This document shows positions 5,963 through 58,841 of a stretch of 64,000 bases of DNA, one piece after another. This DNA is from an uncultured Flavobacteriales bacterium (GTDB lineage Bacteria > Pseudomonadota > Alphaproteobacteria > UBA8366 > JADFVY01). A program made the position numbers and the translations under genes. The notes under the pieces are model-generated. The model saw only the letters and a program-made list of their open reading frames with translations, made no database searches and was not told where the DNA came from. Positions within the stretch are counted from its first letter, which is position 1; the number at the start of each line of letters is the position of its first letter. The stretch spans positions 547 to 64,546 of the forward strand of contig CAYFYY010000014.1 in assembly GCA_964347475.1 (NCBI GenBank), written 5' to 3'.

Positions 5963-5966
5963 TCGG

Positions 5967-7959: not shown

Positions 7960-7965
7960 AGCAGC

Positions 7966-16013: not shown

Positions 16014-16081
16014 TCCCCGTGCCCTTTCCCCGCAACCGTTCTATCGTTATGGACGACGCCCGCTGCACGCCGCAAGCGCGA

Positions 16082-17482
<1,401 letters not shown>

Positions 17483-28994: not shown

Positions 28995-29112
28995 GGGGCG
29001 CCCCCGCGCAACACAGCGATCGGAAACATCCCGATTTCATCAAAGATGAGACGAACCAGTGGCCGGCGCCCCCGGCTGCCCGTGTTAGCAACCCCAACTT
29101 GGAGACGTTCAC

Positions 29113-30069: not shown

Positions 30070-30121
30070 CGCCACTCGATTCACGGTTTTCCATTCGCGC
30101 TTCGCGATAGGAGGTAAGGTT

Positions 30122-32521: not shown

Positions 32522-32549
32522 TTGAACGGGCCGCGCGTCGGGCTATGGT
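32522..32549 (+). promoter_or_regulatory. candidate sigma-70 promoter of cydAB
   Basis: TTGAAC-N16-TATGGT, about 37 nt upstream of the cydA ATG. Confidence 0.3.
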
Positions 32550-32585
32550 AGAGCGGGATACCTGGCGACACTTGGAGGGCCGGCG

Positions 32586-34025
32586 ATGGACGGGTTCGCG
32601 GCGATCGGCGCCGAATTGCCGGCGCGCCTGCAGTTCGCCTTCACCGTCTCGTTCCATATCGTCTTCCCCGCCTTCAGCATCGGGCTGGCGAGCTACCTTG
32701 CGGTGCTCGAGGGGCTGTGGCTGCTCACCCGCCAGCAGGTCTTTCACGACACCTATCGATACTGGCTGAAGATCTTCGCCGTCACCTTCGGCATGGGCGT
32801 CGTCTCCGGCCTCGTCATGAGCTACCAGTTCGGCACCAACTGGAGCGTCTTTTCCGACCGGACGGGGCCGGTCCTCGGGCCGCTGATGGGCTACGAGGTG
32901 ATGTCGGCCTTCTTCCTCGAGGCCGGCTTCCTCGGCATCATGCTGTTCGGCGAGAAGCGTGTCGGCCGCGCCCTGCACTTCGCCGCGACGGTCATCGTCG
33001 CCGCCGGAACGCTGGCCTCGGCGTTCTGGATCCTCAGCGTCAACAGCTGGATGCACACGCCGGCGGGCTACGCGGTGAACGCGGCCGGCCAGTTCGTGCC
33101 GGACGACTGGTGGGCGATCGTCTTCAACCCGTCGTTTCCGTATCGGCTCGTCCACATGGTGCTGGCCTGCTACCTGACCACCGCCTTCGTCGTCGGCGCG
33201 GTCGGCGCCTGGCACCTGATGCGCGACGCCGGCAACCAGCCGGCCCGCCTGATGTTCTCGATGGCGATGTGGATGGCGCTGCTGGTGGCGCCGCTGCAGA
33301 TCGTCGCCGGCGACCTGCACGGCCTCAACACGCTGCGCCATCAGCCGGCCAAGATCGCGGCTATGGAGGGCCATTTCGAAACGCAGGAGGGCGCGCCGCT
33401 GATCCTGTTCGGCCTGCCCGACATGGAAGAGGAGCGCACCCGCTATGCCGTCTCGGTGCCGAAGCTCGGCTCGCTGATCCTCACCCACGACTGGGACGGC
33501 GAGGTGCGCGGCCTCAAATCCTGGCCGCCGGAGGACCGGCCGAATGCCCCGATCCTGTTCTGGAGCTTCCGCATCATGGTCGGACTCGGCGTCCTGATGG
33601 CGCTGCTCGGGGCGTGGTCGCTGCTGCGCCGGCTGCAGGGACGGCTCTACTACGACCGGCGGCTGAAATGTTTCGCCGTCGCGATGGCGCCGTCCGGCTT
33701 CGTCGCCCTGCTCGCCGGCTGGATCACCACCGAGGTCGGGCGCCAGCCCTATACGGTGTACGGGCTGCTGCGCACCGCCGACTCGCTCTCCCCGGTCGGC
33801 GGCATCGCGGTGTCGGCCTCGCTGCTCGGCTTCGTCGTCGTCTATCTGATCGTGTTCGGCGCCGGCGTGTTCTACCTCTTGCGGCTGATGGCGCGCCGGC
33901 CGGAGCCGGGCGTCGAGGATCACGCCGAGCTGGGCCCGGTGCGGGCCGCCGGGATCCTGCCCGGCCTCCTGATGGGCGGCGGCGCCGGCGATGCGCGGAC
34001 GGAGGGCCCCGGCCATGGAACTTGA
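32586..34025 (+). CDS. cydA: cytochrome bd-type ubiquinol oxidase subunit I (short Q-loop, CioA-like)
   Basis: 479 aa. FHIVFPAFSIGL..., GYEVMSAFFLEAGFLGIMLFG, PAKIAAMEGHFETQ. Confidence 0.93.
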   Translation: MDGFAAIGAELPARLQFAFTVSFHIVFPAFSIGLASYLAVLEGLWLLTRQQVFHDTYRYWLKIFAVTFGMGVVSGLVMSYQFGTNWSVFSDRTGPVLGPLMGYEVMSAFFLEAGFLGIMLFGEKRVGRALHFAATVIVAAGTLASAFWILSVNSWMHTPAGYAVNAAGQFVPDDWWAIVFNPSFPYRLVHMVLACYLTTAFVVGAVGAWHLMRDAGNQPARLMFSMAMWMALLVAPLQIVAGDLHGLNTLRHQPAKIAAMEGHFETQEGAPLILFGLPDMEEERTRYAVSVPKLGSLILTHDWDGEVRGLKSWPPEDRPNAPILFWSFRIMVGLGVLMALLGAWSLLRRLQGRLYYDRRLKCFAVAMAPSGFVALLAGWITTEVGRQPYTVYGLLRTADSLSPVGGIAVSASLLGFVVVYLIVFGAGVFYLLRLMARRPEPGVEDHAELGPVRAAGILPGLLMGGGAGDARTEGPGHGT

Positions 34026-35019
34026 CCTTGCCCTCGTCTGGGCGCTGATCCTCGCCTTCGCGGTGTTCGCCTATGTGGTGATGGACGGCTTCGACCTCGG
34101 CATCGGCATCCTGTACCCGCTGCTCCGCGGGCAGCGCGACCGCGACACCGCGATGAACTCGGTCGCGCCGGTGTGGGACGGCAACGAGACCTGGCTCGTG
34201 CTCGGCGGCGGCGGGCTGATGGCCGCGTTCCCGCTGGCCTACGCGATCCTGATGCCGGCCCTGTACGCGCCGATCATCGTCATGCTGGTCGCCCTCATCT
34301 TCCGCGGCGTCGCCTTCGAGTTCCGCTGGCGCACGGTGCGCGCCAAGCACCTGTGGAGCCTTTCGTTCTTCGGCGGCTCCGTTATCGCGGCGCTGTGCCA
34401 GGGCATCGCGCTCGGCGCCATCGTCCAGGGCATCGCGGTTTCGGGCCGCGCCTACGCCGGCGGCTGGTGGGACTGGCTGACCCCGTTCAGCGTGATGACC
34501 GGCGTCGCCCTCGTCGTCGGCTACGCGCTGCTCGGGGCGACCTGGCTGATCATGAAGGCGACGGGCGAGCTCAAGGCGACGGCGACGCGCCTCGCCTGGA
34601 TCTCCGGCGCCGGCACGGTGGCGCTGATCGGCGTCGTCAGCCTGTGGACGCCGCTGCTCAACCCTTCGTTCTGGGAGCGTTGGTTCAACTGGCCGGCGAC
34701 CGCCTATACCGTCTTCGTGCCGCTGCTGGTCGCCGCCTGCATCGCCCTGCTCGTCCGCGGCCTGCGGCGCGGCGACGACGCATCGCCGTTCCTCGCCAGC
34801 CTCGGGCTGTTCCTGTTGTCCTATATCGGGCTTGCGATCAGCCTGTATCCCGACATCGTGCCGCCGGACGTGTCGATCTGGCGCGCCGCCGCGCCGGACG
34901 ACAGCCTCGCCTTCCTCTTGGTCGGCGCCGTCGTCCTCATCCCGCTGATCCTTGCCTACACGGCCTATTCCTATTGGGTGTTCCGCGGCAAGACCGACCC
35001 GCATGCGGGCTATCACTGA
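34015..35019 (+). CDS. cydB: cytochrome bd-type ubiquinol oxidase subunit II
   Basis: 334 aa from MELDLALVWALILAFAVFAYVVMDGFDLGIGIL. Overlaps the cydA end by 11 nt. Confidence 0.92.
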   Translation: MELDLALVWALILAFAVFAYVVMDGFDLGIGILYPLLRGQRDRDTAMNSVAPVWDGNETWLVLGGGGLMAAFPLAYAILMPALYAPIIVMLVALIFRGVAFEFRWRTVRAKHLWSLSFFGGSVIAALCQGIALGAIVQGIAVSGRAYAGGWWDWLTPFSVMTGVALVVGYALLGATWLIMKATGELKATATRLAWISGAGTVALIGVVSLWTPLLNPSFWERWFNWPATAYTVFVPLLVAACIALLVRGLRRGDDASPFLASLGLFLLSYIGLAISLYPDIVPPDVSIWRAAAPDDSLAFLLVGAVVLIPLILAYTAYSYWVFRGKTDPHAGYH

Positions 35020-36730: not shown

Positions 36731-37213
36731 CTAGCGCGGTGTGCCGGGCTTTGCCTCGAGGTTTCCCTTCAGGCGCGACAGCAGGGTGCGCAGGGTCGCC
36801 ACCTCGCCGGGCGTCAGCGACGCGGTCGCTGCCATGTTGACCTCCCAGGCGCGCGGCAGCAGGGCGCGTTTCAGGGCGCGGCCTGCATCGGTCAGGCAGA
36901 CCAGGCGGCGGCGCCGGTCGGCGGGGTCGACGCGGCGCGTCACGAAACCGCGCTTTTCCATGGTGTCGATGGCCGAGACCGTGGTCGGCTCCGTCATGCC
37001 GATGCGGCGGCTCAGCTCGCGCTGGGGCAGCGCGTCCTCCTCCCACAGGGCGCGCAGGAAGAACCACATGCCGACGGTCACGCCGGTGTCGGCAATGGCG
37101 GCGCCCAGCGCCCGCGAGAACGCGCGGTGGGTGTCGCGCACCAGGAAGCCGATGCTGTCCTCGGGCCGCAAGTCGAACTCTCCGCCCGGCTTGTTCTGCT
37201 TGTTCAGCGGCAC
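36731..37213 (-). CDS. MarR family transcriptional regulator
   Basis: 160 aa. wHTH LSRRIGMTEPTTVSAIDTMEKRGFVTRRVDPADRRR. Confidence 0.9.
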   Translation of the reverse strand: MPLNKQNKPGGEFDLRPEDSIGFLVRDTHRAFSRALGAAIADTGVTVGMWFFLRALWEEDALPQRELSRRIGMTEPTTVSAIDTMEKRGFVTRRVDPADRRRRLVCLTDAGRALKRALLPRAWEVNMAATASLTPGEVATLRTLLSRLKGNLEAKPGTPR

Positions 37214-37247: not shown

Positions 37248-37628
37248 TCAGTGGTGATGGTGGCCGTGGTCGTGGCCGTGGTCGTGGTCGGTGCCGCCCT
37301 GGGCCTCGCGGTAGCCGACCAGGAGCGCGTCCATCGCCGCGTGCAGTCCGTCCGCGGCGGGCGGCAACTGGCCGGTCAGGATGCCGGCAAGCCGCGCCAG
37401 CACGACCCCCTGGGCCTGCAGCTGTTCCAGCGCTGCGCCGTCGCCGGCAGCGCCGACGTCGTCGACGCATTTGCGTAGCACCGCTGAAAACAGGTGGTCC
37501 ATATAGGCATGGTCCGGGTCCGCCGCGGCGTCGCGCCCGCCGTCGGCCAGATAGCGGTCCGCGGCGGCGCGGAACCGCTCAATGATCTGCTGTTCCAGCG
37601 GGGTTTCGCTCTCGATATCGCCGCACAT
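37248..37628 (-). CDS. hypothetical acidic helical protein with His-rich tail
   Basis: 126 aa from MCGDIESE (GGAGG SD). Ends GGTDHDHGHDHGHHHH. Confidence 0.55.
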   Translation of the reverse strand: MCGDIESETPLEQQIIERFRAAADRYLADGGRDAAADPDHAYMDHLFSAVLRKCVDDVGAAGDGAALEQLQAQGVVLARLAGILTGQLPPAADGLHAAMDALLVGYREAQGGTDHDHGHDHGHHHH

Positions 37629-37926: not shown

Positions 37927-39960
37927 ATGGACGGCGGCATGCTGGGGATGGCGGGCGAGGCCCTCCTAATCATGCTGGACCCGACGCGGCTGGCGATCCT
38001 CACCGCGGCGGTGCTGATCGGCCTTGCGATAGGCGTGATCCCGGGCCTCGGCGGTATCGTCGGCATGGCGCTGCTGATCCCGTTCACCTACACGATGGAC
38101 CCGTACGCCGCGTTCGCCTTTCTCCTCGGCATGGCGGCGGTGACAACGACGTCCGACACGATCCCGGCGGTGCTGTTCGGCGTTCCGGGCACCACCGGGT
38201 CCGCGGCGACCGTGCTGGACGGCCACCCGTTGGCCAAGAAGGGCCAGGCCGGGCGCGCGTTCGGCGCCGGCTACGCCGCCTCGCTGCTGGGCGGCGTGTT
38301 CGGCGCCCTGCTGCTCGCCGTCAGCATCCCGGTGCTGCGGCCGATCATGCTTTATGTCGGCTCGCCGGAACTGCTGGCGCTGACCGTGTTCGGCCTGTCG
38401 ATGGTCGCGGTGCTCAGCGGCAACACGCCGCTGCGCGGCATCGGCGCCGCGGCGATCGGGCTGATGGTGGCGATGATCGGCAGCGATCCGCAGGCCGGCG
38501 AGCTGCGCTGGACGTTCGACTCGCTCTATCTGTGGGACGGGCTGCCGCTGGTGCCGATCACGCTCGGCCTGTTCGCCGTGCCGGAGCTCATCGACATGGC
38601 GATCAAGCGCCGCAGCATCGCCGAGGACGCGCCGCGCGACCGGGTCGTCGGCGGCCAGTGGCAGGGCATCCGCGACGTCTTCACCCACTGGTGGCTGATG
38701 TTGCGCTGCAGCCTGCTCGGGGCTGGGCTCGGCGCCATCCCCGGGATTGGCTCGGCGGTCATCGACTGGGTCGCCTACGGTCATGCCGCGCGCAGCGAGA
38801 AGAACACCGAGGGCTTCGGCGAGGGCGACATCCGCGGCGTCATCGCCTCGGAAAGCTCGAACAACGCAAAGTCGGGCGGCGCCTTGGTGCCGACCATCGC
38901 CTTCGGCGTGCCGGGGAGCGCCTCGATGGCGCTGCTGCTCGGCGCGTTTCTGATGCACGGGCTGGTGCCGGGGCCGGAAATGCTGACCCGAAATCTCGAC
39001 GTTACGTATGTGATCATCTGGAGCCTCGCGCTGGCCAACATCCTCGGCGCCGGGATCTGCCTGTTCGGCAGCAACCTGCTGGCGCGCATCGCGCTGGTCC
39101 GCTTCGGCGTGCTGCTGCCGATGGTGCTGGCCGTCGTGTTCATCGGCGCCTTCCAGGGCACGCGCAGCTGGGGCGACCTGTTCACACTGCTGATCTTCGG
39201 CACCTTCGGCTGGTTCATGAAGCGCTTCCGCTGGCCGCGCCCGCCGCTCATCCTCGGCTTCGTACTGGGCGGAATCTTCGAGCGCTATCTGTTCATCTCG
39301 GTCGAGCGCTACGGCGCCGACTGGCTGCTCCGCCCGGCGGTGATCGCCATCTTCGTCCTCGCGCTGTGGGGCATGTACCGACCGATGCGGCGGGCGCTCG
39401 CCAATTCCGGGTCCAGCCTCGCCGGCCTGCGGCTCGACAATTTACGGTTCGACTGGTCGATCCTGTTCACCACGCTGATTCTGGCCACTGTGGTCTTCGC
39501 CCTGATCCTTTCGACGGGCTGGCAGGAGATTTCGGCGCGGGTGCCGCGCATCGCCGGCGCCGTGGCCCTGCTCGCGGTGGCCGGCAGCCTGATCGGCCAG
39601 CTTCTGTCGCAGCAGACAGAGGCTGCGGAGTCCGCGCCGTCCACCGCGGTCGACCTGGCCTCCGATACGGACGGATTGCCGCGGCCGCTGTTCATCCGGC
39701 GCGCGGTGTCGTTCTTTTCGTGGCTGGCGCTGTTCATGGCGCTGATCTGGATGACCGGGTTCCTGCCGGCGATCCTCCTGTTCGTCGGCGGCTACATGGT
39801 GCTGGAGGGCAAGGAGCGCTGGCGGCTCGCGCTACCGCTGTCGGTCGCCACCACCGGATTTTGCTGGTTCGTCTTCGACCGGCTGCTGGCGCTGCCGTGG
39901 CCGCGCTCGCTGCTCGGCGACCTGATCCCGCCGCTGCGCGCCGCCACGGGCCTGTTGTAG
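37927..39960 (+). CDS. tctA: TTT permease: TctA fused to a C-terminal TctB-like module
   Basis: 677 aa. The first ~500 aa align with the stand-alone TctA at 54495-55997. The last ~170 aa align with the stand-alone TctB (FFSWLALFMALIWMTGFLPAILLF... versus LFCWLVAFMIAILLLGFLYAMPVAL...). Confidence 0.88.
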   Translation: MDGGMLGMAGEALLIMLDPTRLAILTAAVLIGLAIGVIPGLGGIVGMALLIPFTYTMDPYAAFAFLLGMAAVTTTSDTIPAVLFGVPGTTGSAATVLDGHPLAKKGQAGRAFGAGYAASLLGGVFGALLLAVSIPVLRPIMLYVGSPELLALTVFGLSMVAVLSGNTPLRGIGAAAIGLMVAMIGSDPQAGELRWTFDSLYLWDGLPLVPITLGLFAVPELIDMAIKRRSIAEDAPRDRVVGGQWQGIRDVFTHWWLMLRCSLLGAGLGAIPGIGSAVIDWVAYGHAARSEKNTEGFGEGDIRGVIASESSNNAKSGGALVPTIAFGVPGSASMALLLGAFLMHGLVPGPEMLTRNLDVTYVIIWSLALANILGAGICLFGSNLLARIALVRFGVLLPMVLAVVFIGAFQGTRSWGDLFTLLIFGTFGWFMKRFRWPRPPLILGFVLGGIFERYLFISVERYGADWLLRPAVIAIFVLALWGMYRPMRRALANSGSSLAGLRLDNLRFDWSILFTTLILATVVFALILSTGWQEISARVPRIAGAVALLAVAGSLIGQLLSQQTEAAESAPSTAVDLASDTDGLPRPLFIRRAVSFFSWLALFMALIWMTGFLPAILLFVGGYMVLEGKERWRLALPLSVATTGFCWFVFDRLLALPWPRSLLGDLIPPLRAATGLL

Positions 39961-39962
39961 GG

Positions 39963-41477
39963 CTATGCGCCGGCGGCGAACAGCAGTGACTTGATGACCA
40001 CGGGGACGACGCCGGACGGCTCCAGCCGTCGCCCGAGGTCGACATAGTCGAAATCCGTCAGCGTCAGCCCGTCGATCGAGATCACGGCGCCACCCGGCGC
40101 GACCTCGTCGTGCAGGATGCGGCCGAGCGTCTGGCCGACGTCGCCCTCGCTGAGCAGGACCAGGCAGCCGTCCGGCCCGCACGATTGCGGCAGCGCATCG
40201 GCGATCCCCCTGGCCAGCGCGTGCAGCCGGGGATGGCTCGGGTCGCCGTGCCAACGGAAGGCCAGCGCCAGCATGCGGGCGCCGTCGGCGAGGTCGTGTC
40301 GGGAGAGGCCGGCCCGCACGACCGCGGCCACGGCAGGCGAATCGACCGTTTCCGCCAGCGGGAAATCGCAGAAGACCACCGGCAGGTTGGCGGCGGGCAG
40401 GACGTCCGGATCGGTCACCAGAATCGTGTTCCCGCTGACCTGCACCGTGAATTGCGACGCACCGACCACGGTGGCGCGGATGCCCTGGCCCGGGTCCCAG
40501 ATCTCGGCCGGCGCCTGTCCATCGGCCAGCGCGTGGCCGAGTGCGTGGGCGAACGCCGGGCCGAGGTCGCCGAAGTCGCCGCTCTCGCGCCCGAACAGGA
40601 ACTCCGCAACGCCGCCGGAAAAGGTGACGGCGTCGGGCCGTGGCGTCGCCGGCAGGTGGTCGGTGAGCATCAGCGCGGCAGTGAAGCCCTGCGGCGACTC
40701 CTGGCGTGCAAGTTGCAGGACGATATCGGTCATCGCGCGCACCAGGGCGCGTACGCCATCGGCGTCCAGCGCACCGCCGACCTCCAACTCCAGGTCGCGA
40801 TCGCGGGCCAACCGCCGCGCCGGCTCTTCCAGGCGGGTGATCCGCCCCTTGCGGTCACGGACGACGAGTCGGCCGCCGACCGCCACCGCCGCGGTTGCCA
40901 GGATTTCGCCCTCGCGGACCAGCGCAAACTTCGTCGTGCCGCCGCCGATGTCCACATTGAGGATGACGTTGCGGTGCTGGCGCGACAGTGCGACCGTGCC
41001 GGAGCCCTGCGCCGCCAGCGCGGATTCCATGTGATGGCCGGCCGAGGCGCAGACGAACTTGCCGGACTCGGCGGCGAACAGGTCGGCGATGACGCGGGCG
41101 TTGCGGCGCTTGAGCGCCTCGCCGGTCAGGATCACCGCGCCGCTGTCGATCGACCCGGGCGTCACGCCTGCCTCGCGGTATCCGGTCCGGATGAAGACGT
41201 CCAGCGCCGCCGCGTCGATGGTGAAGTCCGCATTGTAGGGCGTGAGCATCACCGGCGAGCGCCACAGCTCGTCCCGGCCGACCACGATGAAGCGGCTCGA
41301 CAGGCCAGTCGCGACGCGCTGCAGATGCACGCGCGAGATCATGAAATGACTGGTCGAGGAGCCGATGTCGATGCCGACGGTCGTCATCTCGACGTTATCG
41401 GCCCGCCAGATCGTCTCGCTCAGGCGCCCCGCCTGCGCCGGCGTGACATGGATGTGCGAGAACTCGACGTCGTGCAT
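39963..41477 (-). CDS. EutA-family (ethanolamine ammonia-lyase reactivase-like) ASKHA ATPase
   Basis: 504 aa. VGIDIGSSTSH, IDSGAVILTGEALKRRNAR, ASAGHHMESALAAQGSG, LNVDIGGGTTK and C-terminal VVPVVIKSLLF all parallel E. coli EutA blocks. Confidence 0.88.
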   Translation of the reverse strand: MHDVEFSHIHVTPAQAGRLSETIWRADNVEMTTVGIDIGSSTSHFMISRVHLQRVATGLSSRFIVVGRDELWRSPVMLTPYNADFTIDAAALDVFIRTGYREAGVTPGSIDSGAVILTGEALKRRNARVIADLFAAESGKFVCASAGHHMESALAAQGSGTVALSRQHRNVILNVDIGGGTTKFALVREGEILATAAVAVGGRLVVRDRKGRITRLEEPARRLARDRDLELEVGGALDADGVRALVRAMTDIVLQLARQESPQGFTAALMLTDHLPATPRPDAVTFSGGVAEFLFGRESGDFGDLGPAFAHALGHALADGQAPAEIWDPGQGIRATVVGASQFTVQVSGNTILVTDPDVLPAANLPVVFCDFPLAETVDSPAVAAVVRAGLSRHDLADGARMLALAFRWHGDPSHPRLHALARGIADALPQSCGPDGCLVLLSEGDVGQTLGRILHDEVAPGGAVISIDGLTLTDFDYVDLGRRLEPSGVVPVVIKSLLFAAGA

Positions 41478-41498
41478 GCCGCCGCTCGCCGCGCGCCG

Positions 41499-42638
41499 TC
41501 AGCCCGTCGCCTTGCGGACCCGGGTCTCGTCGATGTAGGCGCCCATGCGCGATTCGACGCCGTTGCGGTCCAGCTCCTCCAGATAGATCCGGTGGATGCG
41601 CGGGTCCTGGTCGGCATACTCGATCTGGCGGCCGCCGTCGCGCACGTTGACGTCGACGCCAGCGAACAGGTTGCGCTTTTCCGCGGTAAAGGGGTAGCGC
41701 AGGCTGCCCAGCGCGACTGCCAGATAACGCGACGGGTGCGGCGCCGTATTGTAGTGCTGGTGATACATCATGTCAGGCGGCGCGAAGACCCAGCCGTGTT
41801 TCCAGTCGATGCGGACGAAATCCTCGTCGCCCTCGTACCACAGCAGCGAATAGCCGTGGCCGGTCACCGCGTAGACGTGGAAGTCGGCGCCGTGCCGGTG
41901 CGCCTTCTTGTAGGTGCCGACCGGCATCTCCGACGAGTGTGCGTGCATGGTCCCGTCGGCGAGGATGAACTTCATGTTCGAGCTGCCGGCGCCGCGTTGT
42001 TCCCAGGTCTGCAGCTCGAAGGCGGCCAGGTCGGGGATGAAGTTGGTCTCCCACATGTGGCGGCCCGGTCGCACCGGAATGAAATCGCCCTCTCCCGCGA
42101 AATAGCGCGCCTCGCCTTCGCGTTCGGTGAACCGGAACGGGTTGTCGAAGATGAACCGGTCATTATGGAACAGGTTGATCATGATCGGCGCGTTGGTCGT
42201 CGAGGCCAGCCGCGCCGGTTCATGTCCGCTGCCGTTGAAATGCTGGTAGCGGCAGTTGAGCGGCAGGGCAAACAGGCTCTTCGGGCCCCATTCGAAGCTG
42301 TGCCGCCGGCCGTCCATGGTCTCGATCACCGTGTTGCCGCGCCCGGACAGGACGTAGACCACCTCTTCGAACATGTGCTGCTGCGGCGTGCCCTGCGCCC
42401 CCGGCGCCAGTTCGAGCACGAAGATCGAGACGAAATCGCCGCGCCCTTTCAGGTGCACGATCGCGCCGCTGCAGCCGAACCGGGACCACGGCGCGGTGTC
42501 GACGCCAAGCAGGTCGACGCCGAAATCCTCGACCACCGGCACGCCTTCGCCGGCGGCCCAGTCACCGTAGGGGTCGAGCAGCAGCTTCAGATCCGCATCC
42601 GTTGCCATCAATTTTTCCGCCATCGCAAGTCCGTCCAT
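41499..42638 (-). CDS. bicupin protein (gentisate-dioxygenase-like architecture)
   Basis: 379 aa. The N-terminal cupin has only QQHMFEE. The C-terminal cupin has AHRHGADFH...YHQH metal-ligand pattern. Confidence 0.85.
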   Translation of the reverse strand: MDGLAMAEKLMATDADLKLLLDPYGDWAAGEGVPVVEDFGVDLLGVDTAPWSRFGCSGAIVHLKGRGDFVSIFVLELAPGAQGTPQQHMFEEVVYVLSGRGNTVIETMDGRRHSFEWGPKSLFALPLNCRYQHFNGSGHEPARLASTTNAPIMINLFHNDRFIFDNPFRFTEREGEARYFAGEGDFIPVRPGRHMWETNFIPDLAAFELQTWEQRGAGSSNMKFILADGTMHAHSSEMPVGTYKKAHRHGADFHVYAVTGHGYSLLWYEGDEDFVRIDWKHGWVFAPPDMMYHQHYNTAPHPSRYLAVALGSLRYPFTAEKRNLFAGVDVNVRDGGRQIEYADQDPRIHRIYLEELDRNGVESRMGAYIDETRVRKATG

Positions 42639-42698
42639 GCAGAGCCGCGCGCCCAGGGTCGTGCCGGCTCGCGCACCGAATCCCCGATCACTGCGCCG

Positions 42699-43442
42699 TC
42701 AGGCGGCGTTGGACAGCTTCTCGTTCAACTCGTCGCCGGCGTCGCCGATGCCGTTCAGATACAGCTCCCAGATCTCCAGGTTGCGCCGGCAGGCGAGCAC
42801 CACCTGGTCCTCCATGCTCAGCTCCTCGGCGTATTTGGCGACGGTGTTCCAGCCGAGGTCGGAATGGGCGACATCCGCCTCCTCGTGCAGCTCGAAGAAG
42901 CCGAGCTTGTCATTGGGAACGCCCAGCACCTCGTTCCACCGCTTGCGCTCCAGCCCGAACCAGCCGTGCGGCCGCGTCGGCCCGCTGCCGTAGCCCGGCA
43001 CGTTGGCGCGTTCGGCGCAGGTGTTGCCGACCAGGCCCTCCAGCCAGTGCCGGTTGCCCATGATCGCCTCCCAGGCGAGCCAGGCGATGCGGGTCGTCTG
43101 CAGGGGTTCGGCCGCGCGGATATCCTCGCGCGTCATGCCGATCTGCGTGCCGAGCTCCTCGAGAATGGCGAAATGCGGCAGGCCGCCGCCATGTTCGTCG
43201 TCGGCGATGATCTCGTCGATGCAGGCGTCGACGATGCCGATGCGCACATCCCAATCCGGCGTGTTCGTCGCGACCTTCAGCTTGAGGACCGAGTTGCGGT
43301 ACATCGAGTTCTGCCGGTGCTGGTAGACGAACATCTTGGCCCGGCCGAGGTTGAACGGCTCGTGGAAGAACCTGCAGCGATCGCAGAACTCGTGGACTTC
43401 CCTGTCAAGTCGCTCGACGATCGAGCTACTGCTGTCAGCCAT
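42699..43442 (-). CDS. haem-oxygenase-like (CADD/PqqC/TenA superfamily) putative di-metal redox protein
   Basis: 248 aa from MADSSSSIVE. IDEIIADDEHGGGLPHFAILEELG...EP and FFELHEEADVAHSDLG parallel the CADD motifs MDEENGYPNHIDLW and FTEHEEADVRHA. Confidence 0.8.
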   Translation of the reverse strand: MADSSSSIVERLDREVHEFCDRCRFFHEPFNLGRAKMFVYQHRQNSMYRNSVLKLKVATNTPDWDVRIGIVDACIDEIIADDEHGGGLPHFAILEELGTQIGMTREDIRAAEPLQTTRIAWLAWEAIMGNRHWLEGLVGNTCAERANVPGYGSGPTRPHGWFGLERKRWNEVLGVPNDKLGFFELHEEADVAHSDLGWNTVAKYAEELSMEDQVVLACRRNLEIWELYLNGIGDAGDELNEKLSNAA

Positions 43443-43592: not shown

Positions 43593-44534
43593 TCAGGCGC
43601 TGGCCCGCAGCTCCTGCATCACACCGCGCCAGCCGGCGATCCCGCCATCGATCATCTCGACCGTGATGTCGCGCACCAGGTCGGCGACCGACAGGAAGGC
43701 CTTCGACGGCGGGCGGTCGTGCGAATAGGCAAGATAGAGCGTGCGTTCGATCTCGGGCCCGACGATGCGGTTGGCACGCAGCGTGCCGTTGCCGACGGCG
43801 GCGCGGACGGCGCCCAGCGGCAGGATCGTGTTGCCGAAGCCGCGCTTGACGAACTCGCGGATCATCGGCACGGAATCCACTTCGCACGCGACCTGCACCT
43901 CTGTGCCGATACTCCTGGCTGCCTCGTCGACCTGCAGCCGCAGCAGGTGCGGCCGGCTGGGCAGCACCAGCGGATCGGACAGCGCCCTGGCCAGTCTGAC
44001 CGGCTCGGTGCCGCCGTCGCCCGACGGCCGAATGAAGTACAGCCCCTCAAGGGCCAGCCGCTCGACCTCGACATCGCCGGTGGCGTTCGGGTTGTAGGTC
44101 AGCGCAAGGTCGATCTTGCCCTTGTCGACCCACTCCATGAGCTGTTCGCTCAGACCCTCGGAGATGCTGAGCGCGACCTCCGGGTACATGTCGCGGACGC
44201 GGTCCGCCAGCGTCGTGCCCAGGAGCTGGCTGGTGGTCGGCGACAGGCCGATGGTCACGCGCCCACGCGGCGATTGCGAATGGTCCTGAAGGTCCTGGCG
44301 TGCGCGCTCGACCTGCCGCAGGATCACCTCGGCATGCTCGGCCAGCAGGAGGCCGGCCTCGGTCGGGGTGACGCCGCGCGAATGGCGCTGGAATAACTGA
44401 ACGCCCAGCTCGGTCTCCAGCTTGCGGATCTGCAAGCCGAGGGCCGGCTGCGCGATGTAGAGATGCTCCGACGCCTTGGTGATGCTTTTATAGCGGAGCA
44501 CTCCGAGAAAGAAGCGTAACCCTTTGATATCCAT
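43593..44534 (-). CDS. LysR family transcriptional regulator
   Basis: 313 aa. LRYKSITKASEHLYIAQPALGLQIRKLE. Divergent from the UbiD gene. Confidence 0.92.
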   Translation of the reverse strand: MDIKGLRFFLGVLRYKSITKASEHLYIAQPALGLQIRKLETELGVQLFQRHSRGVTPTEAGLLLAEHAEVILRQVERARQDLQDHSQSPRGRVTIGLSPTTSQLLGTTLADRVRDMYPEVALSISEGLSEQLMEWVDKGKIDLALTYNPNATGDVEVERLALEGLYFIRPSGDGGTEPVRLARALSDPLVLPSRPHLLRLQVDEAARSIGTEVQVACEVDSVPMIREFVKRGFGNTILPLGAVRAAVGNGTLRANRIVGPEIERTLYLAYSHDRPPSKAFLSVADLVRDITVEMIDGGIAGWRGVMQELRASA

Positions 44535-44792: not shown

Positions 44793-46271
44793 ATGAGCAC
44801 GAGCGAGGTTCAGATCCCAAATCCGATCCGGATCGGTGAGCACGCCGAGCCGCATGTCGACCTGCGCGACTGGCTCGAGCGGGTCGAGGCGATCGGCCAG
44901 CTGCAGCGGGTTTCCGGCGTGCACTGGAACCTCGAGATGGGCGCGGTTGCGGAAATGATCTACCACGCGCGTCCGGAGAACCCGCCGGCCATCCTGTTCG
45001 AGGACATTCCCGATTATCCCAGCGGGTTCAGGGTGCTTTCGGGCATGACAAACTCGCCGCAGCGGCTGGCGCTGACGCTGGGCCTGCCGAAGCCGGCGAA
45101 CCCGATGGACGTGGTCCGCGCCTATCGCGACCGGATGAAGCGGTTCGAGCTGATCGGTGCCCGCCAAGTCAACGGCGGGCCGGTGCAGGATCATGTCGAC
45201 CGCGATGACGACGTCGATCTCTACAAGTTCCCGACACCGTTCCTGCACGAGCTCGATGGGGGCCGCTACATCGGCACCGGGGATCTCGTCATCATGCGCG
45301 ATCCGGACGACGACTGGGTCAATATCGGCACCTATCGTGTCATGATCCACGACAAGAGCACGCTTGGCCTGTGGATGTCGCCGGGCAAGCATGGCAGGCT
45401 GATCCGCGAGAAGTACTTTGCGCGTGGCGAGCCGTGCCCGGTCGCGATCAGCGTCGGCCACGACCCGCTGCTGTTCCTGTCGTCCGGCAACGAGGTCGAT
45501 TACGGCACATCGGAGTTCGCCCACGCCGGCGGGCACCGGGGCGTGCCCTTCGACGTGGTGGCGAGCGAGCTGCACGACCTGCCAATCCCGGCCCACGCGG
45601 AGATCGTCATCGAGGGTGAGATCGTGCCCGACGACCTGCGCCCGGAGGGCCCGTTCGGCGAATGGACAGGCTATTACGCGAGCTCGGTGCGCGAGGACCC
45701 GGTTGTTCGCGTGCGCCGGGTCTATTACCGGAGCGATCCGATCATCACGATGGCGCGTCCGGGCCGGCCGCCGTCGGACTATTCGCTCAGCAAATGCGTC
45801 ATCAAGTCGGCGATGATCTGGGACGAGGTCGAGAAGGCCGGCTTGCCGGGCGTGCAGGGTGTCTGGTGCCACGAGGCGGGCGGCGGACGCCTGTTCAACA
45901 TCATCTCGATCAAGCAGGCCTATCCGGGGCACGCGAAGCAGGCGGCAATGCTGGCCGCCAACTGCCACGCCGGCAACTATCTGGGGCGGTTCGTCGTCGT
46001 GGTCGACGAGGACATCGACCCGACCAACACCTTCGACATCATGTGGGCGATGGCCAGCCGGTGCGACCCCGTCGAGGATATCGACTTCATCCGGCGTGCC
46101 TGGAGCGGCGCGCTCGACCCGCGCAAACGGGTCGGCGACAATCACAATTCGCGCGCCATCGTCGATGCGACGCGCCCCTTCGAATGGCGCGACGAGTTCC
46201 CGCCGGTTGCCGAGTCGAGCCCGGAACTCGCAGCAAGAACCATGGAGAAGTGGGGACATCTGCTCGACTGA
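44793..46271 (+). CDS. UbiD family (prFMN-dependent) decarboxylase
   Basis: 492 aa. DLRDWLERVEAIGQLQRV..., GRYIGTG, GPFGEWTGYY. Confidence 0.92.
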   Translation: MSTSEVQIPNPIRIGEHAEPHVDLRDWLERVEAIGQLQRVSGVHWNLEMGAVAEMIYHARPENPPAILFEDIPDYPSGFRVLSGMTNSPQRLALTLGLPKPANPMDVVRAYRDRMKRFELIGARQVNGGPVQDHVDRDDDVDLYKFPTPFLHELDGGRYIGTGDLVIMRDPDDDWVNIGTYRVMIHDKSTLGLWMSPGKHGRLIREKYFARGEPCPVAISVGHDPLLFLSSGNEVDYGTSEFAHAGGHRGVPFDVVASELHDLPIPAHAEIVIEGEIVPDDLRPEGPFGEWTGYYASSVREDPVVRVRRVYYRSDPIITMARPGRPPSDYSLSKCVIKSAMIWDEVEKAGLPGVQGVWCHEAGGGRLFNIISIKQAYPGHAKQAAMLAANCHAGNYLGRFVVVVDEDIDPTNTFDIMWAMASRCDPVEDIDFIRRAWSGALDPRKRVGDNHNSRAIVDATRPFEWRDEFPPVAESSPELAARTMEKWGHLLD

Positions 46272-46334: not shown

Positions 46335-46925
46335 GTGAGACGCACTGCTCGCTTCATCGTCGAGCGCCTCCCCGACGCCTTCGGCCCGGTCTTCTTTCTG
46401 TTCGCCGCGGTCGCCACAGCCAGCGGCATCGCCTGCTATCTCCTGCTCGGACCCGAGGCCTTCGAACGCGCCCTCGGGCGCAACGCAGACCTTCTGCTAT
46501 CGCTGTTGCCGCGAATTCTGGCAGCCGTCGCGGTCGCCGGCCTGGTGCGGGCGATCATCCCCCGCGAGACGCTGGGTGCGCTGCTCGGCCGAAAGTCCGG
46601 GTTGCGTGGCCTGGTGGTCGCCGCGCTCGCCGGCATGGTGACGCCGGGCGGGCCTTTCGCCTCCTTCACGTTCATGGTCATGCTGCGCGATTCGGGAATC
46701 GATCGCGGATCGCTGGTTGCCTATGCGACGGGCTGGGCGCTGCTCGGCATCCAGCGGATTCTGGTCTGGGACATTCCGATGATGGGCCCGGACTTCACCC
46801 TGCTGCGGTTTGCGGTCTCTGCACCGCTGCCGATCCTCGCCGGACTACTGGCACGCGCGATCCCGATCGATCCGTTCCTGGTGCGGCAGGAGCGCGCCGG
46901 CCAACCGCCGGAACCCGGACGATGA
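46335..46925 (+). CDS. half-size permease (DUF318/ArsP-like), subunit 1
   Basis: 196 aa, multi-TM, GTG start. Paired with a 4-nt-overlapping homologous half. Confidence 0.7.
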   Translation: MRRTARFIVERLPDAFGPVFFLFAAVATASGIACYLLLGPEAFERALGRNADLLLSLLPRILAAVAVAGLVRAIIPRETLGALLGRKSGLRGLVVAALAGMVTPGGPFASFTFMVMLRDSGIDRGSLVAYATGWALLGIQRILVWDIPMMGPDFTLLRFAVSAPLPILAGLLARAIPIDPFLVRQERAGQPPEPGR

Positions 46926-47419
46926 GCGGCTCCCTGGTCTTCATCTGGATGCTTGCCGCAGTCCTCGCCGGGACCGCGATGTCGCGCCGTGACGGCAGCC
47001 TGGCGGATGGCGCCCTGTATGGCGCGGACCAACTGGTTCGCCTGCTACCCCGCCTGGTCGTGGCGCTGACGGCGGCGGGGTTCATCGCGCCGCTGATTCC
47101 CGGAGATGAAGTCGGGCGCTGGCTCGGCACTGACAGCGGTGCGCTCGGCATCGCGATTGCGGCCTTTGCCGGACTGCTGATCCCGTCGGGGCCGGTGGTG
47201 ACGTTCTCGCTCGCCGCCGTCCTGTTCCACGCCGGAGCGGGAACGCCGCAAATGGTCGCTTTCGTCACCTCCTGGTCGGTCTTCGCTCTGCACAGGATCA
47301 CGATTTACGAGATCCCGATGCTGGGCTGGCGCTTTCTCTCCGTCCGGTTGCTGTCGGTCCTGCCGCTGCCGCTCATCGCCGGCTTTGCCGCCGGTGCCGT
47401 GCATCACGCCGTGGCATAA
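46922..47419 (+). CDS. half-size permease, subunit 2
   Basis: 165 aa, multi-TM. ATGA overlap with the upstream gene. Confidence 0.7.
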   Translation: MSGSLVFIWMLAAVLAGTAMSRRDGSLADGALYGADQLVRLLPRLVVALTAAGFIAPLIPGDEVGRWLGTDSGALGIAIAAFAGLLIPSGPVVTFSLAAVLFHAGAGTPQMVAFVTSWSVFALHRITIYEIPMLGWRFLSVRLLSVLPLPLIAGFAAGAVHHAVA

Positions 47420-47629
47420 GCGGTGAATTTGGAGCCCATGTCGCTATTGTCTTGGTGAGCAAGTCCCTGTTGTAGTTTGATAACTGGCGAACAATGCAGC
47501 ATTGGCGCCGACGTGCCGGAGGCAGAAGGGCAGCGCCGCGTGCGTTTTCCTCGATCCGGTCCGCTGGACGCCACGCAAGCGTCCGCCCGCACGAACGGGC
47601 GGGGCGAACGGGAAACGGGAGGAACGGAC

Positions 47630-48661
47630 ATGCCCAGATACGATCTGGCGTTCATTGCCGCTTTCGTGGCCGTGGCAATCCTGCCATGGGGCCCCGCGAA
47701 GGCGGAGTCGGTAGAGGAATTCTATTCCGGAAGAACGGTCGAGCTCTATATCGGCTACAGCCCGGGCGGCGGTTACGATACCTATGCGCGGACGATCGCG
47801 CGGCATCTTGCCAAGCACATCCCCGGCAATCCGACGATCGTGCCCAAGAACATGAAGGGCGCCGGCAGCCTGAAGCTGACCAATTACATGTACAACGTCG
47901 CCGCCAAGGACGGCAGCGTCATCGCCACCGTCGGCCGCGGCATGGCGATGGAACCGCTGCTCGGCGGCAAGGGCATCCAGTTCGACCCGCAGAAGTTCAA
48001 CTGGATCGGCAGCGCCAATAACGAGGTGAGCATCTGCGGTGCGTGGCACGAGACCGGGATCAAGACCTGGGAGGACGTGCTGTCCAAGGAGCTGATCGTC
48101 GGCGGCACCGGGTCGGGTGCCGACACCGATACCTTTCCGCTCCTGCTCAAGAACATGTTCGGCGCCAAGCTGAAACTTATCTCCGGCTATCCGGGCGGCA
48201 ACGACATCCTGCTGGCCATGGAACGCGGCGAGGTCGGCGGTCGCTGCGGCTGGTCGTGGTCGAGCGTGAAGGCCAAGAAGCGCGACTGGGTCCGGGACGG
48301 CAAGGTCAACGTCCTCCTGCAGATGTCGGTGGCAAAGCACCCGGACCTGCCCGGCGTACCGCTGGTCATGGACCTCGCGAAGACCAACGAGGACAAGCAG
48401 GTCCTGAAGCTGATCTTCGCGCGCCAGGTCATGGGACGGCCGTATCTTGCGCCGCCCGAGGTTCCGGCGGAGCGGGTCAAAGCGCTGCGCCGGGCGTTCG
48501 AGGCCACCCTTCAGGATCCTGAGTTCCTGGCCGAAGCGGAAAAGGCCAAGCTGGAAATCAACCTGGTGACCGGGGCAGAGATCGAGGAACTTCTGACGGA
48601 AATCTACGCTGCGCCGAAGGAGATCGCCGAAAAGGCGACCCAGGCGGCGCAGGCCCGCTAG
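47630..48661 (+). CDS. periplasmic TctC-like (TTT family) substrate-binding protein
   Basis: 343 aa from MPRYDLAFIAAFVAVAILPWGPAKA (GGGAGG SD). GYSPGGGYDTYARTIARHL matches the other two TctC-like genes in the window. Confidence 0.8.
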   Translation: MPRYDLAFIAAFVAVAILPWGPAKAESVEEFYSGRTVELYIGYSPGGGYDTYARTIARHLAKHIPGNPTIVPKNMKGAGSLKLTNYMYNVAAKDGSVIATVGRGMAMEPLLGGKGIQFDPQKFNWIGSANNEVSICGAWHETGIKTWEDVLSKELIVGGTGSGADTDTFPLLLKNMFGAKLKLISGYPGGNDILLAMERGEVGGRCGWSWSSVKAKKRDWVRDGKVNVLLQMSVAKHPDLPGVPLVMDLAKTNEDKQVLKLIFARQVMGRPYLAPPEVPAERVKALRRAFEATLQDPEFLAEAEKAKLEINLVTGAEIEELLTEIYAAPKEIAEKATQAAQAR

Positions 48662-48817: not shown

Positions 48818-49678
48818 ATGAAGGTTTCGGTTATCGGGGCCGGCGCAATGGGGGCCGCCATGGCCGGGCATCTGGTCCGTGCGGGGCACGACGTCATTGG
48901 ATTCGATGTGGATCCACAGCGTAAGGAGGCGGTGACACAGGCCGGCGCAGCGTTCGCCCGCCACCTCGAGGAGGCTGCGGCGGCCGAACTGTTCATCGTC
49001 ATGGTGGTATCCGATGCGCAGTCGGCGCAGGTCGTGCACGCGCTGTCCGGCCTCGCTAGCCCGGCCGCATTGATCGCCATCGCCGCGACCAATCATCCCG
49101 ATACCATGACCGGGCTCGCCAGCACCGCGGCAGAACATGGCCTCCGACTGATCGATGCCCCGGTCTGCTTCGGACTGCAGGGAGCCCTCGACGGCGAACT
49201 GGTGAGTCTGTGCGGGGGTGGCGAAGCGGACGTCGATTTCGCCCGCCCGGTCCTTATGGCCTACAGTCGCGAGGTCTATCACGTCGGGCCCCTGGGCGCC
49301 GGGCAACTCGCCAAGGCCTGCAACAACATGCTGCACTGGGCCGCCTGCGTCGCCAATTTCGAGGTGCTGCTCCTGGCCAAACGGTTCGGGGTCGATGCCC
49401 AGCGCATGCGCGAGATTCTGCTCGACTGCCCGGGCCAGAACGGCACGCTCGCGCGCTGGGATTCGACCCGCTTCACCTGGCCGGAGAAGGACATGGATAT
49501 CGTTCTCGACTTGGCCCAGACAGGCGGGCTGAAGCTGCCGCTGTTCGGCCAGATCGATCAGCTCGTCAAGCTGCTCGGCCCGCAGCAGGTCAAGGATTTG
49601 CTGTACGGGGATGAGACGACCTATCTCGGCGAGACCGTCGGTCCGCTGTCGCGGGATGCCGGCGGACTCGGGTCCTGA
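48818..49678 (+). CDS. NAD(P)-dependent oxidoreductase, 3-hydroxyisobutyrate dehydrogenase family
   Basis: MKVSVIGAGAMGAAMAGHL Rossmann motif. GQLAKACNNML. Confidence 0.88.
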   Translation: MKVSVIGAGAMGAAMAGHLVRAGHDVIGFDVDPQRKEAVTQAGAAFARHLEEAAAAELFIVMVVSDAQSAQVVHALSGLASPAALIAIAATNHPDTMTGLASTAAEHGLRLIDAPVCFGLQGALDGELVSLCGGGEADVDFARPVLMAYSREVYHVGPLGAGQLAKACNNMLHWAACVANFEVLLLAKRFGVDAQRMREILLDCPGQNGTLARWDSTRFTWPEKDMDIVLDLAQTGGLKLPLFGQIDQLVKLLGPQQVKDLLYGDETTYLGETVGPLSRDAGGLGS

Positions 49679-49685
49679 TCGCGCC

Positions 49686-50531
49686 ATGGCCCAGGACCTT
49701 TCGCCGGAGGTTGCCCGTACGGCGGGGGTGATCGGCCTCGGCGCCATGGGAGCACCAATGGCGCGGCACCTGGTGCGGGCCGGATTCCGGGTCAGCGGCT
49801 ACGACCCGGACCGTGCGGCACGGCGCCGCGTGGCGGACATGGTGACGTGCCTGGCGAGCCCGGCGGCAGTTGCCGAGAGCGCCGCCCTCACCCTCGTCAT
49901 CGTGCCGACCGATACCGACGTGCTGGCCGCGTGCAGGGGCAATGACGGCCTGTTCGCCGCCGACGGCACCGGCCGGATCGTGGCGATCTGCAGCTCGGTG
50001 CGACCCGACACCGTCCGTGCTTTGGAGCAACCGGCCGGTCGCGCCGGGTTCGATCTGCTCGACCTGCCGCTGACCAAGGGGGTGCGGGCCGCCGAGGCCG
50101 GCACGATAACGCTGCTCGCGGGCGGGGATGCGGAAATCCTGCGGCGGGCGATCCCGTTCCTCACGTGCTTTTCGGCGGGGATCCACCATGTCGGCGGGCT
50201 CGGCGCCGGCCAGGTCGCCAAGACCGTGAACAATCTGCTGTTGTGGTCGGGCATGGTCGCCGTGGCGGAGGCGTTGCGCCTGGGGGCACGGCTCGGCACG
50301 GACCCTGCCGTGTTGCGTGAGGCGATGCAGGACTGCAGTGCCGACAGCTGGGTGCTGCGCGAGTTCGACCGAATCGTGCCGACCTGGCCGGCCAAGGACA
50401 TGGAGAACGCCCTCGCCACGGCCGCGGCGGCGGGCATCGACCTGCCGCTCATGGCCGTGGTGGCAGCGCAGGTCGGGGCGTACGACAGAAACGTGCTGAA
50501 CCGCATCCTGGCGGGAGAACACGCTGACTAG
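49686..50531 (+). CDS. second NAD(P)-dependent oxidoreductase, 3-hydroxyisobutyrate dehydrogenase family
   Basis: GVIGLGAMGAPMARHL. GQVAKTVNNLL. Tandem paralogue of the preceding gene. Confidence 0.85.
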   Translation: MAQDLSPEVARTAGVIGLGAMGAPMARHLVRAGFRVSGYDPDRAARRRVADMVTCLASPAAVAESAALTLVIVPTDTDVLAACRGNDGLFAADGTGRIVAICSSVRPDTVRALEQPAGRAGFDLLDLPLTKGVRAAEAGTITLLAGGDAEILRRAIPFLTCFSAGIHHVGGLGAGQVAKTVNNLLLWSGMVAVAEALRLGARLGTDPAVLREAMQDCSADSWVLREFDRIVPTWPAKDMENALATAAAAGIDLPLMAVVAAQVGAYDRNVLNRILAGEHAD

Positions 50532-50546
50532 CAGAGGGACGAGGCA

Positions 50547-58600: not shown

Positions 58601-58841
58601 CGATTCGTCCTCTCTCCGTGCGGGTCGCCGCCAGTTGATATTGAATCTTAATGTGAATCCGGTGCCGGAACAACAAATGCCGCAGTCTGGCGGTCAGACA
58701 ATCTTTGTTTCCGGGTAGTAGCGAGTTGGCATTGTCTTGCCTGCGGGCCAGCGTCTACAAGCAAGATCAAGGCGCACGCCGCGCGGCCCGAAGGGCCGTT
58801 GCGACGGGGCCGCAACATCCCAAGCCGGAGAGGGCAGGGAC

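Follow-up and report, generated by a model that had tools for sequence, protein, structure and literature searches.

Several kinds of accessory protein are known to attend bacterial cofactor-dependent enzymes. The Hsp70-like (ASKHA) ATPases DdrAB and GdrAB free damaged cofactor from diol and glycerol dehydratases, while HypA (with its MHE motif), HypB, UreE, SlyD, CooJ and the nitrile hydratase activators combine metal-binding tails and NTP-driven delivery with a gene beside that of the client. A further case is the XylT-type ferredoxin, encoded by a dedicated gene of catabolic operons, which restores oxidatively inactivated catechol 2,3-dioxygenase by reducing Fe(III). To our knowledge, the nickel and cobalt metallochaperones among these are GTPases (SIMIBI/COG0523), peptidyl-prolyl isomerases or small proteins, none of the ASKHA fold and none serving a cupin; we also know of no accessory ATPase for any cupin enzyme, nor of one for the gentisate 1,2-dioxygenases (GDOs). 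The EutA family offers a precedent of ATP-driven cofactor exchange, in which damaged cobalamin is taken out of ethanolamine ammonia-lyase (EAL) and fresh cofactor put in (PMC9426561). Here we describe a 64-kb stretch of the alphaproteobacterial contig CAYFYY010000014.1 (the window; ∼67% G+C throughout) in which a EutA-like ATPase is encoded directly beside a bicupin, and we compare this pair with its relatives in other genomes.

The pair is part of a row of four successive minus-strand open reading frames (ORFs), all with the high G+C at third codon positions (GC3) seen in real genes. In transcriptional order these encode a LysR-family regulator (43593-44534, assigned by profile matches, with a promoter-like site at 44591-44563), a haem-oxygenase-like (HO-like) putative di-metal protein of the CADD/PqqC-like type (42699-43442; 247 aa; PF14518), the bicupin (41499-42638; 379 aa; Cupin_2/Cupin_1 matches in the N-terminal barrel) and the EutA-like protein (39963-41477; 504 aa; PF06277, E=1.8e-110). 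The bicupin and EutA-like genes are separated by 21 nt and the HO-like and bicupin genes by 60 nt, and no terminator-like site was found between the module genes. An earlier annotation made from the letters of the window (the sequence-only reading) had described three such packed genes below a LysR gene, and the re-derived coordinates agree with it. Public gene calls suggest that the bicupin probably starts at Met6 (42623), giving a protein of 374 aa.

Membership of the EutA-like protein in the EutA family is clear from its Pfam match (370.5 bits against a cut-off of 27 for PF06277), which takes residues 30-500 across profile positions 2-474 of 475. The colinearity with EutA that had been noted from the sequence alone holds from residue 30 to the end, C-terminal domain included, at 33% identity to residues 5-465 of the Escherichia coli protein. 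The NCBIfam EutA equivalog models (NF007991-NF007994), on the other hand, were all failed, the best score being 300 bits against a required 598 and the others 208-262 against 769-952. Searched against 1.84 billion representative proteins, the window protein matched 797 clusters at E<=1e-30; it scored 298-579 bits against the top 150 representatives vs. 209-219 bits against four canonical EutAs, and a neighbour-joining tree placed these four in a group of their own, apart from the window protein and its cupin-linked clade. At 50% identity this clade comprises 150 clusters or more, and at 90% identity thousands of sequences, which score well above canonical EutA; its members are Proteobacteria of soil and sea, Gemmatimonadota, Chloroflexota, Eremiobacterota and Actinomycetota. 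Scores, clade and relation to eutBC (see below) together indicate a EutA-family member that is not an EAL-reactivase equivalog. The two clades share their ATP site: the ASKHA phosphate-1 (D37/G39/T42), phosphate-2 (D176/G178-G180/T181) and adenosine (S287/G288/G289) motifs are kept in 144 clade members and in the four canonical EutAs, so that the ATPase machinery is intact, and the loss of nucleotide-binding motifs on careful alignment, named by the sequence-only reading as a refutation, did not show. K183, in turn, is a residue specific to the cupin-linked clade.

What sets this clade apart is the company of its genes. We collected 80 genome loci with EutA-like relatives, all from metagenome-assembled genomes (MAGs) of Xanthobacteraceae, other Hyphomicrobiales, Burkholderiales, Gammaproteobacteria, Gemmatimonas, Chloroflexota, Candidatus Lustribacter and Nocardioidaceae, together with four metagenome loci. 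The 83 EutA-like copies come from six or more phyla. In 65 of them a bicupin gene, invariably in the same orientation, lies less than 400 bp away (median distance between hits 45 bp); in a further 11 it is 0.7-2 kb off, and an insertion sequence or the gene of a small cupin or ABC ATPase intervenes. The remaining copies are mostly truncated by contig ends, and full 8-kb flanks lacking a bicupin were seen only in L047 and L056 (L and P numbers denote individual loci and proteins of this survey). Many loci come from related Xanthobacteraceae and raw counts therefore overstate independence, an overcounting from which the spread across phyla and the plasmid data below are free: the coupling spans Alpha-, Beta- and Gammaproteobacteria, Gemmatimonas, Chloroflexota, Candidatus Lustribacter and Nocardioidaceae, and distant representatives with 35%, 38% and 41% identity to the window protein each adjoin a cupin gene of 350-370 aa, while one with 46% identity has a 377-aa cupin ∼2.3 kb upstream in the same operon. 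In a collection of 72,556 plasmids the four records with a cupin-linked EutA (Phyllobacterium zundukense, Sinorhizobium mexicanum, S. terangae and S. chiapasense) also carry the bicupin, each gene being present twice, and no other record has it; none of the 22 records with a canonical EutA (<=35% identity) has a bicupin. In all, the coupling is found in well over 100 other bacterial genome loci. We regard a functional partnership of the two proteins as very likely. A mirror-tree comparison also gave r=0.91; as this value is confounded by shared phylogeny, we do not use it as evidence of interaction. Nor do we use P0246 (606 aa), in which a EutA-like protein is joined to a fragment of a bicupin C-terminal barrel; though it has the appearance of a natural fusion, it is probably an assembly or frameshift chimera.

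These data also bear on the simplest account of the gene, namely that it is an ordinary eutA displaced from a eutBC operon, or that the bicupin is an unrecognized corrinoid enzyme. The name EutA, given by Pfam and by some NCBI and JGI annotations, speaks for it. The canonical EutA genes of E. coli, Listeria, C. difficile and a haloarchaeon all adjoin eutBC, whereas tblastn with E. coli EutB, EutC, EutT and EutH found no match in the window or in the 84 loci, nor did EutB and EutC in 79 further loci collected with the bicupin as query, so that across ∼160 loci the gene is never beside eutBC and is cupin-adjacent instead. The sequence-only reading had seen no B12-related gene in the window, and this stood up in Pfam scans of ∼50 major GC3-supported ORFs across the 64 kb, which gave no B12-related domain, and in a scan of the window for cobalamin and other Rfam riboswitches, which was empty. 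One cobalamin riboswitch (115 bits) does occur in L076 at 16039-16228 (minus strand), 6.5 kb from the EutA-like gene; it lies upstream of a gene for a 775-aa ribonucleotide reductase (RNR)-like protein, to which it belongs, and we rejected it as a part of the module. EAL of short operons works without EutA (PMC9426561), and eutB is present in 161 plasmid records as against canonical eutA in only 22; both points tell against displacement. With the failed equivalog cut-offs and the separate clade, this account is largely refuted and we give it hardly any weight. The protein is not a stray eutA.

The ratio of the two genes is uneven. Among the 79 bicupin-query loci an ATPase gene lies within 7 kb in only 40; six loci (L016, L028, L036, L112, L151 and L152) have tandem arrays of two to five bicupin paralogues followed by a single ATPase, and several MAGs have extra bicupin-only loci beside an ATPase-linked one. 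Some single genomes hold many tandem bicupins and only one detected EutA-like gene (L036/L120/L168 of Gemmatimonas MAG129; L151/L160; L152/L158), with at least eight bicupin paralogues in Gemmatimonas MAG129. This pattern is relevant to the possibility that the EutA-like protein is a catalytic subunit, kinase- or ligase-like, which would use ATP to activate a substrate for the bicupin (phosphorylation at a phenolic or enolic oxygen is one possibility) and would then resemble phenylphosphate synthase/carboxylase and the acetone and acetophenone carboxylases. In favour of this, small-molecule kinases and ATPases make up most of the ASKHA proteins, and the EutA-like protein has kept its ATP motifs. 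Tight gene pairs with apparent translational coupling, as here, are a usual mark of enzyme subunits, and a UbiD-family protein encoded in the window is similar to subunits of phenylphosphate carboxylase, at a score of 301 bits that falls short of the cut-off. An obligate 1:1 complex is nevertheless hard to square with one ATPase per two to five bicupins and with the many loci that have none; colinearity with a known reactivase extends over the entire protein and takes in the EutA-specific C-terminal domain, and the His-rich tail discussed below would be left without a role. On balance we consider a catalytic subunit unlikely.

The presumed client belongs to a family with 4428 clusters of homologues, labelled in the sources as 'hypothetical' or as 'uncharacterized RmlC-like cupin', that retains 70-80% identity across orders. 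In an alignment of 72 sequences, which includes paralogues and members of only 34-45% identity, nine residues of the C-terminal barrel are invariant (H234, H247, H249, H293, H295, K244, K245, N297 and R304), while the would-be ligands of the N-terminal barrel vary (position 86 is a Gln, and H88 is replaced by Gln in nine of the 72), in agreement with the earlier statement that only the C-terminal barrel keeps an HxH...H site (H247, H249 and H293). The invariant His cluster and the basic residues argue that the bicupin is a metalloenzyme. An AlphaFold2 (AF2) model (predicted TM-score, pTM, 0.80) has two beta-barrels, and its Foldseek matches are generic (E-values down to 5e-15, to oxalate decarboxylase, MncA, quercetinase and vicilins), the lowest root-mean-square deviation being to the gentisate 1,2-dioxygenase 3bu7 (5.9 Å, TM ∼0.5, 17-18% identity). 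Sequence matches are weak (33 bits to the MabB model against a cut-off of 650; E=0.01 to 3bu7), and neither profile nor Foldseek searches revealed an organic-cofactor motif. With GDO the bicupin shares a length of ∼370 aa, an AHRH...H stretch of the C-terminal barrel that aligns, and an aromatic-acid context, but no GDO family model was matched, and the 3-His site here is C-terminal whereas the catalytic 3-His site of GDO is in the N-terminal barrel. By alignment and model, this is a distinct bicupin family whose C-terminal barrel has a 3-His(+2)-type metal site, with basic residues that would suit a carboxylate substrate.

The clade-specific feature of the EutA-like protein, and one that suggests metal, is an N-terminal extension. 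The tail MHDVEFSHIH (encoded at 41448-41477, minus strand) follows the pattern MHDxEFxHxH of the window protein and its alphaproteobacterial relatives, with H2, H8 and H10 invariant in 40 homologues, and in beta- and gammaproteobacterial, Chloroflexota and other members the tail consists of long His/Asp runs with up to 17 His, as in HEHEHEHGHEHGHGHGHEHGHDHDD. At least three His precede the first ATP motif in 73 of 141 representatives, as compared with none in the 8-11 residues that precede it in the four canonical EutAs, and one member has a C-terminal His tail in addition. Met-His-acidic N-termini and His-rich tails are hallmarks of nickel, cobalt and zinc chaperones such as HypA, HypB, UreE, SlyD and CooJ. 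A second metal site, made up of the clade-specific residues H44, C143 and H148, was weighed and dropped, as these are only 60-74% conserved. The AF2 model of the protein (mean pLDDT 83.7) has the generic ASKHA fold, with residues 1-10 disordered and followed by a clade-specific helix. Its Foldseek matches (PilM, Ppx/GppA, HgdC and MreB) are likewise generic and transfer no specific function, and a sequence search of the PDB found no EutA structure, only weak matches to MreB and Ppx. To DdrAB and GdrAB, too, the similarity in these PDB and Foldseek searches extends only to the generic fold, and the locus differs from theirs in having no gene for a small beta subunit and no B12 client.

From these features we propose a two-gene module of bicupin and EutA-like ATPase. 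The bicupin would be a metal-dependent enzyme, most likely an oxygenase, ring-cleaving or of a related kind, with carboxylated aromatic or heteroaromatic acids as its substrates, and the EutA-like protein its dedicated ATP-driven maturation or repair factor, which by analogy with EutA would transiently open the cupin so that a wrong, oxidized or missing metal ion could be exchanged. The flexible His-rich tail may capture the metal and hand it over to the bicupin, and one ATPase could serve several bicupin paralogues. Such metal handling is the most economical explanation of an intact EutA-type ATPase, its nearly constant adjacency to a metallo-cupin, the gain of a His tail and the sharing of one ATPase among several paralogues; that the protein inserts or exchanges the bicupin metal is a proposal to which we would give a little under an even chance. 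In principle it may work like EutA or DdrAB, and in purpose like HypA, HypB or UreE. With EutA it has in common the Pfam family, full colinearity, identical ASKHA motifs, the same C-terminal domain and probably the use of ATP to remodel a client enzyme so that its cofactor can be exchanged; it differs in its His-rich tail and K183, in scoring below the equivalog cut-offs, in having no link to eutBC or B12, and in its client, which for EutA is a TIM-barrel B12 enzyme and here presumably a cupin. What HypA, HypB, UreE, SlyD, CooJ and the nitrile hydratase activators share with it is a flexible His-rich or Met-His-acidic tail and an accessory gene beside that of the client, and at the level of sequence features the marks of a metallochaperone, a His-rich segment and an NTPase next to a client metalloenzyme gene, are all present. 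XylT is comparable as a dedicated accessory gene for a non-haem iron ring-cleavage dioxygenase, but it encodes a small [2Fe-2S] ferredoxin, which is no ATPase and has no homology to the EutA-like protein.

Several points weigh against a role in metal exchange. In about 40% of the representatives the N-terminus as annotated has at most one His. Wrongly called starts may account for some of these, but the tail may also be dispensable. His-rich tails are typical of nickel, cobalt and zinc factors rather than of iron or manganese ones, whereas the nearest cupin enzymes use Fe(II), and we know of no metallochaperone of the ASKHA type. As half of the bicupin loci lack an ATPase gene, the bicupins may not strictly depend on it. 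Neighbouring genes for metal transporters (ABC-3, FbpABC-like and TerC-like) turn up only sporadically and may reflect inherited synteny or serve to import the substrate, and no metal-sensing riboswitch or dedicated metal regulator was found nearby. Finally, we infer the whole mechanism, from physical interaction and metal handling to the identity of metal and substrate, from sequence, predicted folds and gene context. What would be new is a EutA-family exchange factor with a new class of client. Full-text literature searches returned no paper on a cupin-associated EutA, an ASKHA metallochaperone or an accessory ATPase for a cupin; a match to a Ruegeria 'EutA' concerned an unrelated ectoine protein of that name. 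It is possible, though we say so with somewhat more reserve than for metal exchange as such, that the cupin-linked clade represents the first ASKHA-fold metallochaperone or 'metal reactivase', acting on uncharacterized bicupin oxygenases by means of ATP and a His tail.

The sequence-only reading had placed the HO-like protein at the centre of the system, as an oxidase to be reloaded or repaired together with the cupin by an ASKHA chaperone. Its comparisons with the self-sacrificing CADD and with SznF we treat as analogies. A chaperone or reactivase for a client other than a B12 enzyme is still the best reading, but the conserved partner is the bicupin alone. Except for its length (247 rather than 248 aa), the protein itself is as had been described: its DDEH...H and HEEADVAH blocks align with the CADD-type 4-aminobenzoate synthase 9pj4 and with 4lqx, its best PDB matches, and E77, D81, H90, E144, H186, D190 and H193, putative metal ligands by comparison with CADD, are at least 97% conserved among 120 homologues. 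It passes PF14518 ('iron-containing redox enzyme'; 44.9 bits against 28.9, E=1.5e-11) and fails the subfamily cut-offs for CADD (TIGR04305; 21.9 against 200 bits) and BesC (18.8 against 500 bits). An HO-like gene lies directly upstream of the bicupin or bicupins in ∼8 lineages (L102, L103, L104, L129/L016, L036, L149, L151 and L152), so that the triad is not unique to the window; it is missing from most loci, however, and homologues 62-71% identical sit without the pair in the neighbourhood of nitroreductase/ferredoxin, glyoxalase or PQQ-dehydrogenase genes. The HO-like gene recurs upstream of the pair without being an obligatory part of it, and the conserved unit is a dyad of EutA-like and bicupin genes rather than a triad. 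In two of the other neighbourhoods (L094 8001-8729 and L095 8001-8726) the HO-like homologues, 62-64% identical and named PqqC by JGI, adjoin pyrroloquinoline quinone (PQQ)-dependent dehydrogenases (PQQ beta-propeller, GSDH), and this subfamily may act on quinone or PQQ-like compounds.

Divergent from the LysR gene is that of the UbiD-family decarboxylase, a type dependent on prenylated flavin mononucleotide (prFMN), at 44793-46271 on the plus strand (UbiD_N, UbiD and UbiD_C domains; TIGR00148 at 288 bits, above the cut-off). Copies 74-98% identical adjoin the pair in nine other loci (L003-L005, L034, L102, L103, L113, L114 and L118), and in L003-L005, L034 and L103 the order LysR-(HO-like)-bicupin-EutA-like is repeated and the UbiD gene is followed in the same arrangement by two ArsP_1-like half-permease genes, in the window at 46335-46925 and 46922-47419 (plus strand). 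The recurrence of UbiD genes near the pair, and of HO-like genes upstream of it, gives some substance to a reactivase in the strict sense of EutA or Rubisco activase that would solve a problem other than metal, by clearing the bicupin or a neighbour (the prFMN of UbiD, say, or the di-metal site of the HO-like protein) of a damaged organic cofactor, a dead-end product or a tightly bound inhibitor; cofactor exchange is, after all, the established role of EutA (PMC9426561). UbiD and HO-like genes occur in a minority of the EutA-like loci, whereas the bicupin is nearly universal, the His-rich tail points to metal ions, and no organic-cofactor motif was seen in the bicupin; we therefore rate such a reactivase as improbable, and keep to exchange of the bicupin metal as the preferred reading.

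Under that reading, the substrates of the bicupin would be imported by flanking transporters of the tripartite tricarboxylate (TTT), major facilitator superfamily (MFS) or ATP-binding cassette (ABC) type and trimmed by neighbouring decarboxylases of the UbiD and dihydroxyphthalate-decarboxylase types. Recurrent neighbours of the pair are a homologue of 4,5-dihydroxyphthalate decarboxylase (E=3.9e-82 to 9jp7), a class II aldolase family protein closest to 3,4-dihydroxyphthalate decarboxylase (PhtC-like), BoxD/PaaZ-type aldehyde dehydrogenases, CMD-family, MmgE/PrpD and Rieske LigXa-like proteins, small cupins and UbiD, together with transporters of the TTT, MFS, TRAP or ABC type, and one locus contains the set of hydroxylase, cupin and fumarylpyruvate hydrolase typical of the gentisate pathway. 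Many such pieces lie between 36.7 and 58.7 kb of the window. Besides the UbiD and ArsP-like genes these include a TctA-TctB fusion permease of the TTT type (37927-39960, plus strand), convergent with the EutA-like gene, copies of which (55-97% identical) flank the pair in L005, L006, L104, L107, L110, L111, L117, L118 and L128, and a TctC/Bug-type solute-binding protein (47477-48661, plus strand), which has no NCBIfam match but whose homologues flank the pair in L003, L004, L007, L086 and L087. A MarR-family regulator (36731-37213, minus strand) is of a type seen beside the pair elsewhere, with homologues found by tblastn in 19 EutA-like loci and divergent from the bicupin in many Xanthobacteraceae. 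The thiamine diphosphate (ThDP)-dependent enzyme at 50532-52286 (plus strand) is 62% identical to one encoded two genes upstream of the bicupin in P. zundukense and L110; it and the HIBADH-type reductase before it (49533-50531, plus strand) possibly belong to the same pathway. Two tandem small cupins (57438-57875 and 57986-58693, minus strand) are related to ones that accompany the pair elsewhere, either between the EutA-like and bicupin genes in beta- and gammaproteobacterial loci (L062, L067 and L077-L084) or beside UbiD in marine Rhodospirillaceae (L113, L117 and L118), and may be further clients or pathway enzymes. Taken together, the neighbourhoods suggest that the module serves the catabolism of carboxylated aromatic or heteroaromatic acids.

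The formamidase, ABC-3 permease, TRAP transporter, GS-like and PCuAC-like genes that recur near the pair in Xanthobacteraceae were judged to be inherited synteny and not parts of the system. In L076 (4575-11787; Candidatus Lustribacter) and on two unclassified metagenome contigs (L099 1714-9249, which has two pairs, and the P0272 locus) the pair is embedded in an FbpABC-like ABC importer made up of an SBP_bac_1/6/11 binding protein, a fused double permease and a TOBE_2 ATPase, which could bring in iron or substrate. Between the MarR and TctA genes of the window lies a small ORF (37248-37628, minus strand) that ends in GGTDHDHGHDHGHHHH; it has no Pfam match and homologues only in the two closest relatives, L005 and L006, and may be spurious or encode a further metal-binding accessory protein.

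Two further regions of the window deserve mention. The urocanase gene hutU (4174-6084, plus strand) of a hut cluster, which also encodes histidine ammonia-lyase (6412-7959) and N-formylglutamate amidohydrolase (7960-8772), is split by a frameshift, with Urocanase_C profile positions 1-56 in the long ORF and 61-195 in a different frame (overlapping ORF 5486-5962, plus strand), so that it is either an assembly error or a pseudogene. Genes for an MtrA/PioA-like multihaem cytochrome (29089-30069, plus strand) and an MtrB/PioB-type outer-membrane porin (30062-32359, plus strand) are followed 3' by those for subunits I and II of a cytochrome bd oxidase (32526-35019, plus strand); by its gene content the whole looks like a module for extracellular electron transfer or iron oxidation.

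EutA-family proteins are annotated automatically as EAL reactivases, and yet the members of the clade described here that were examined in context lie in cupin-linked modules with no B12 connection. Cupins bind metals according to the Irving-Williams series, and a dedicated exchange factor would be one answer to how they obtain and keep the correct metal in the cytoplasm. The analysis also draws attention to an abundant uncharacterized bicupin family, probably engaged in the degradation of carboxylated aromatics, whose heterologous expression may fail without the partner ATPase. The presence of the pair in the cultured S. mexicanum, S. terangae, S. chiapasense and P. zundukense makes the hypothesis directly testable. 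Should maturation or repair of the bicupin metal be demonstrated, the cupin-linked proteins would constitute a new class of metallochaperone, much of the diversity of the EutA family would prove to be mis-annotated as 'ethanolamine ammonia-lyase reactivating factor', and the chaperoning of cofactor exchange by this family would either have begun with, or reach well beyond, the B12 enzymes.

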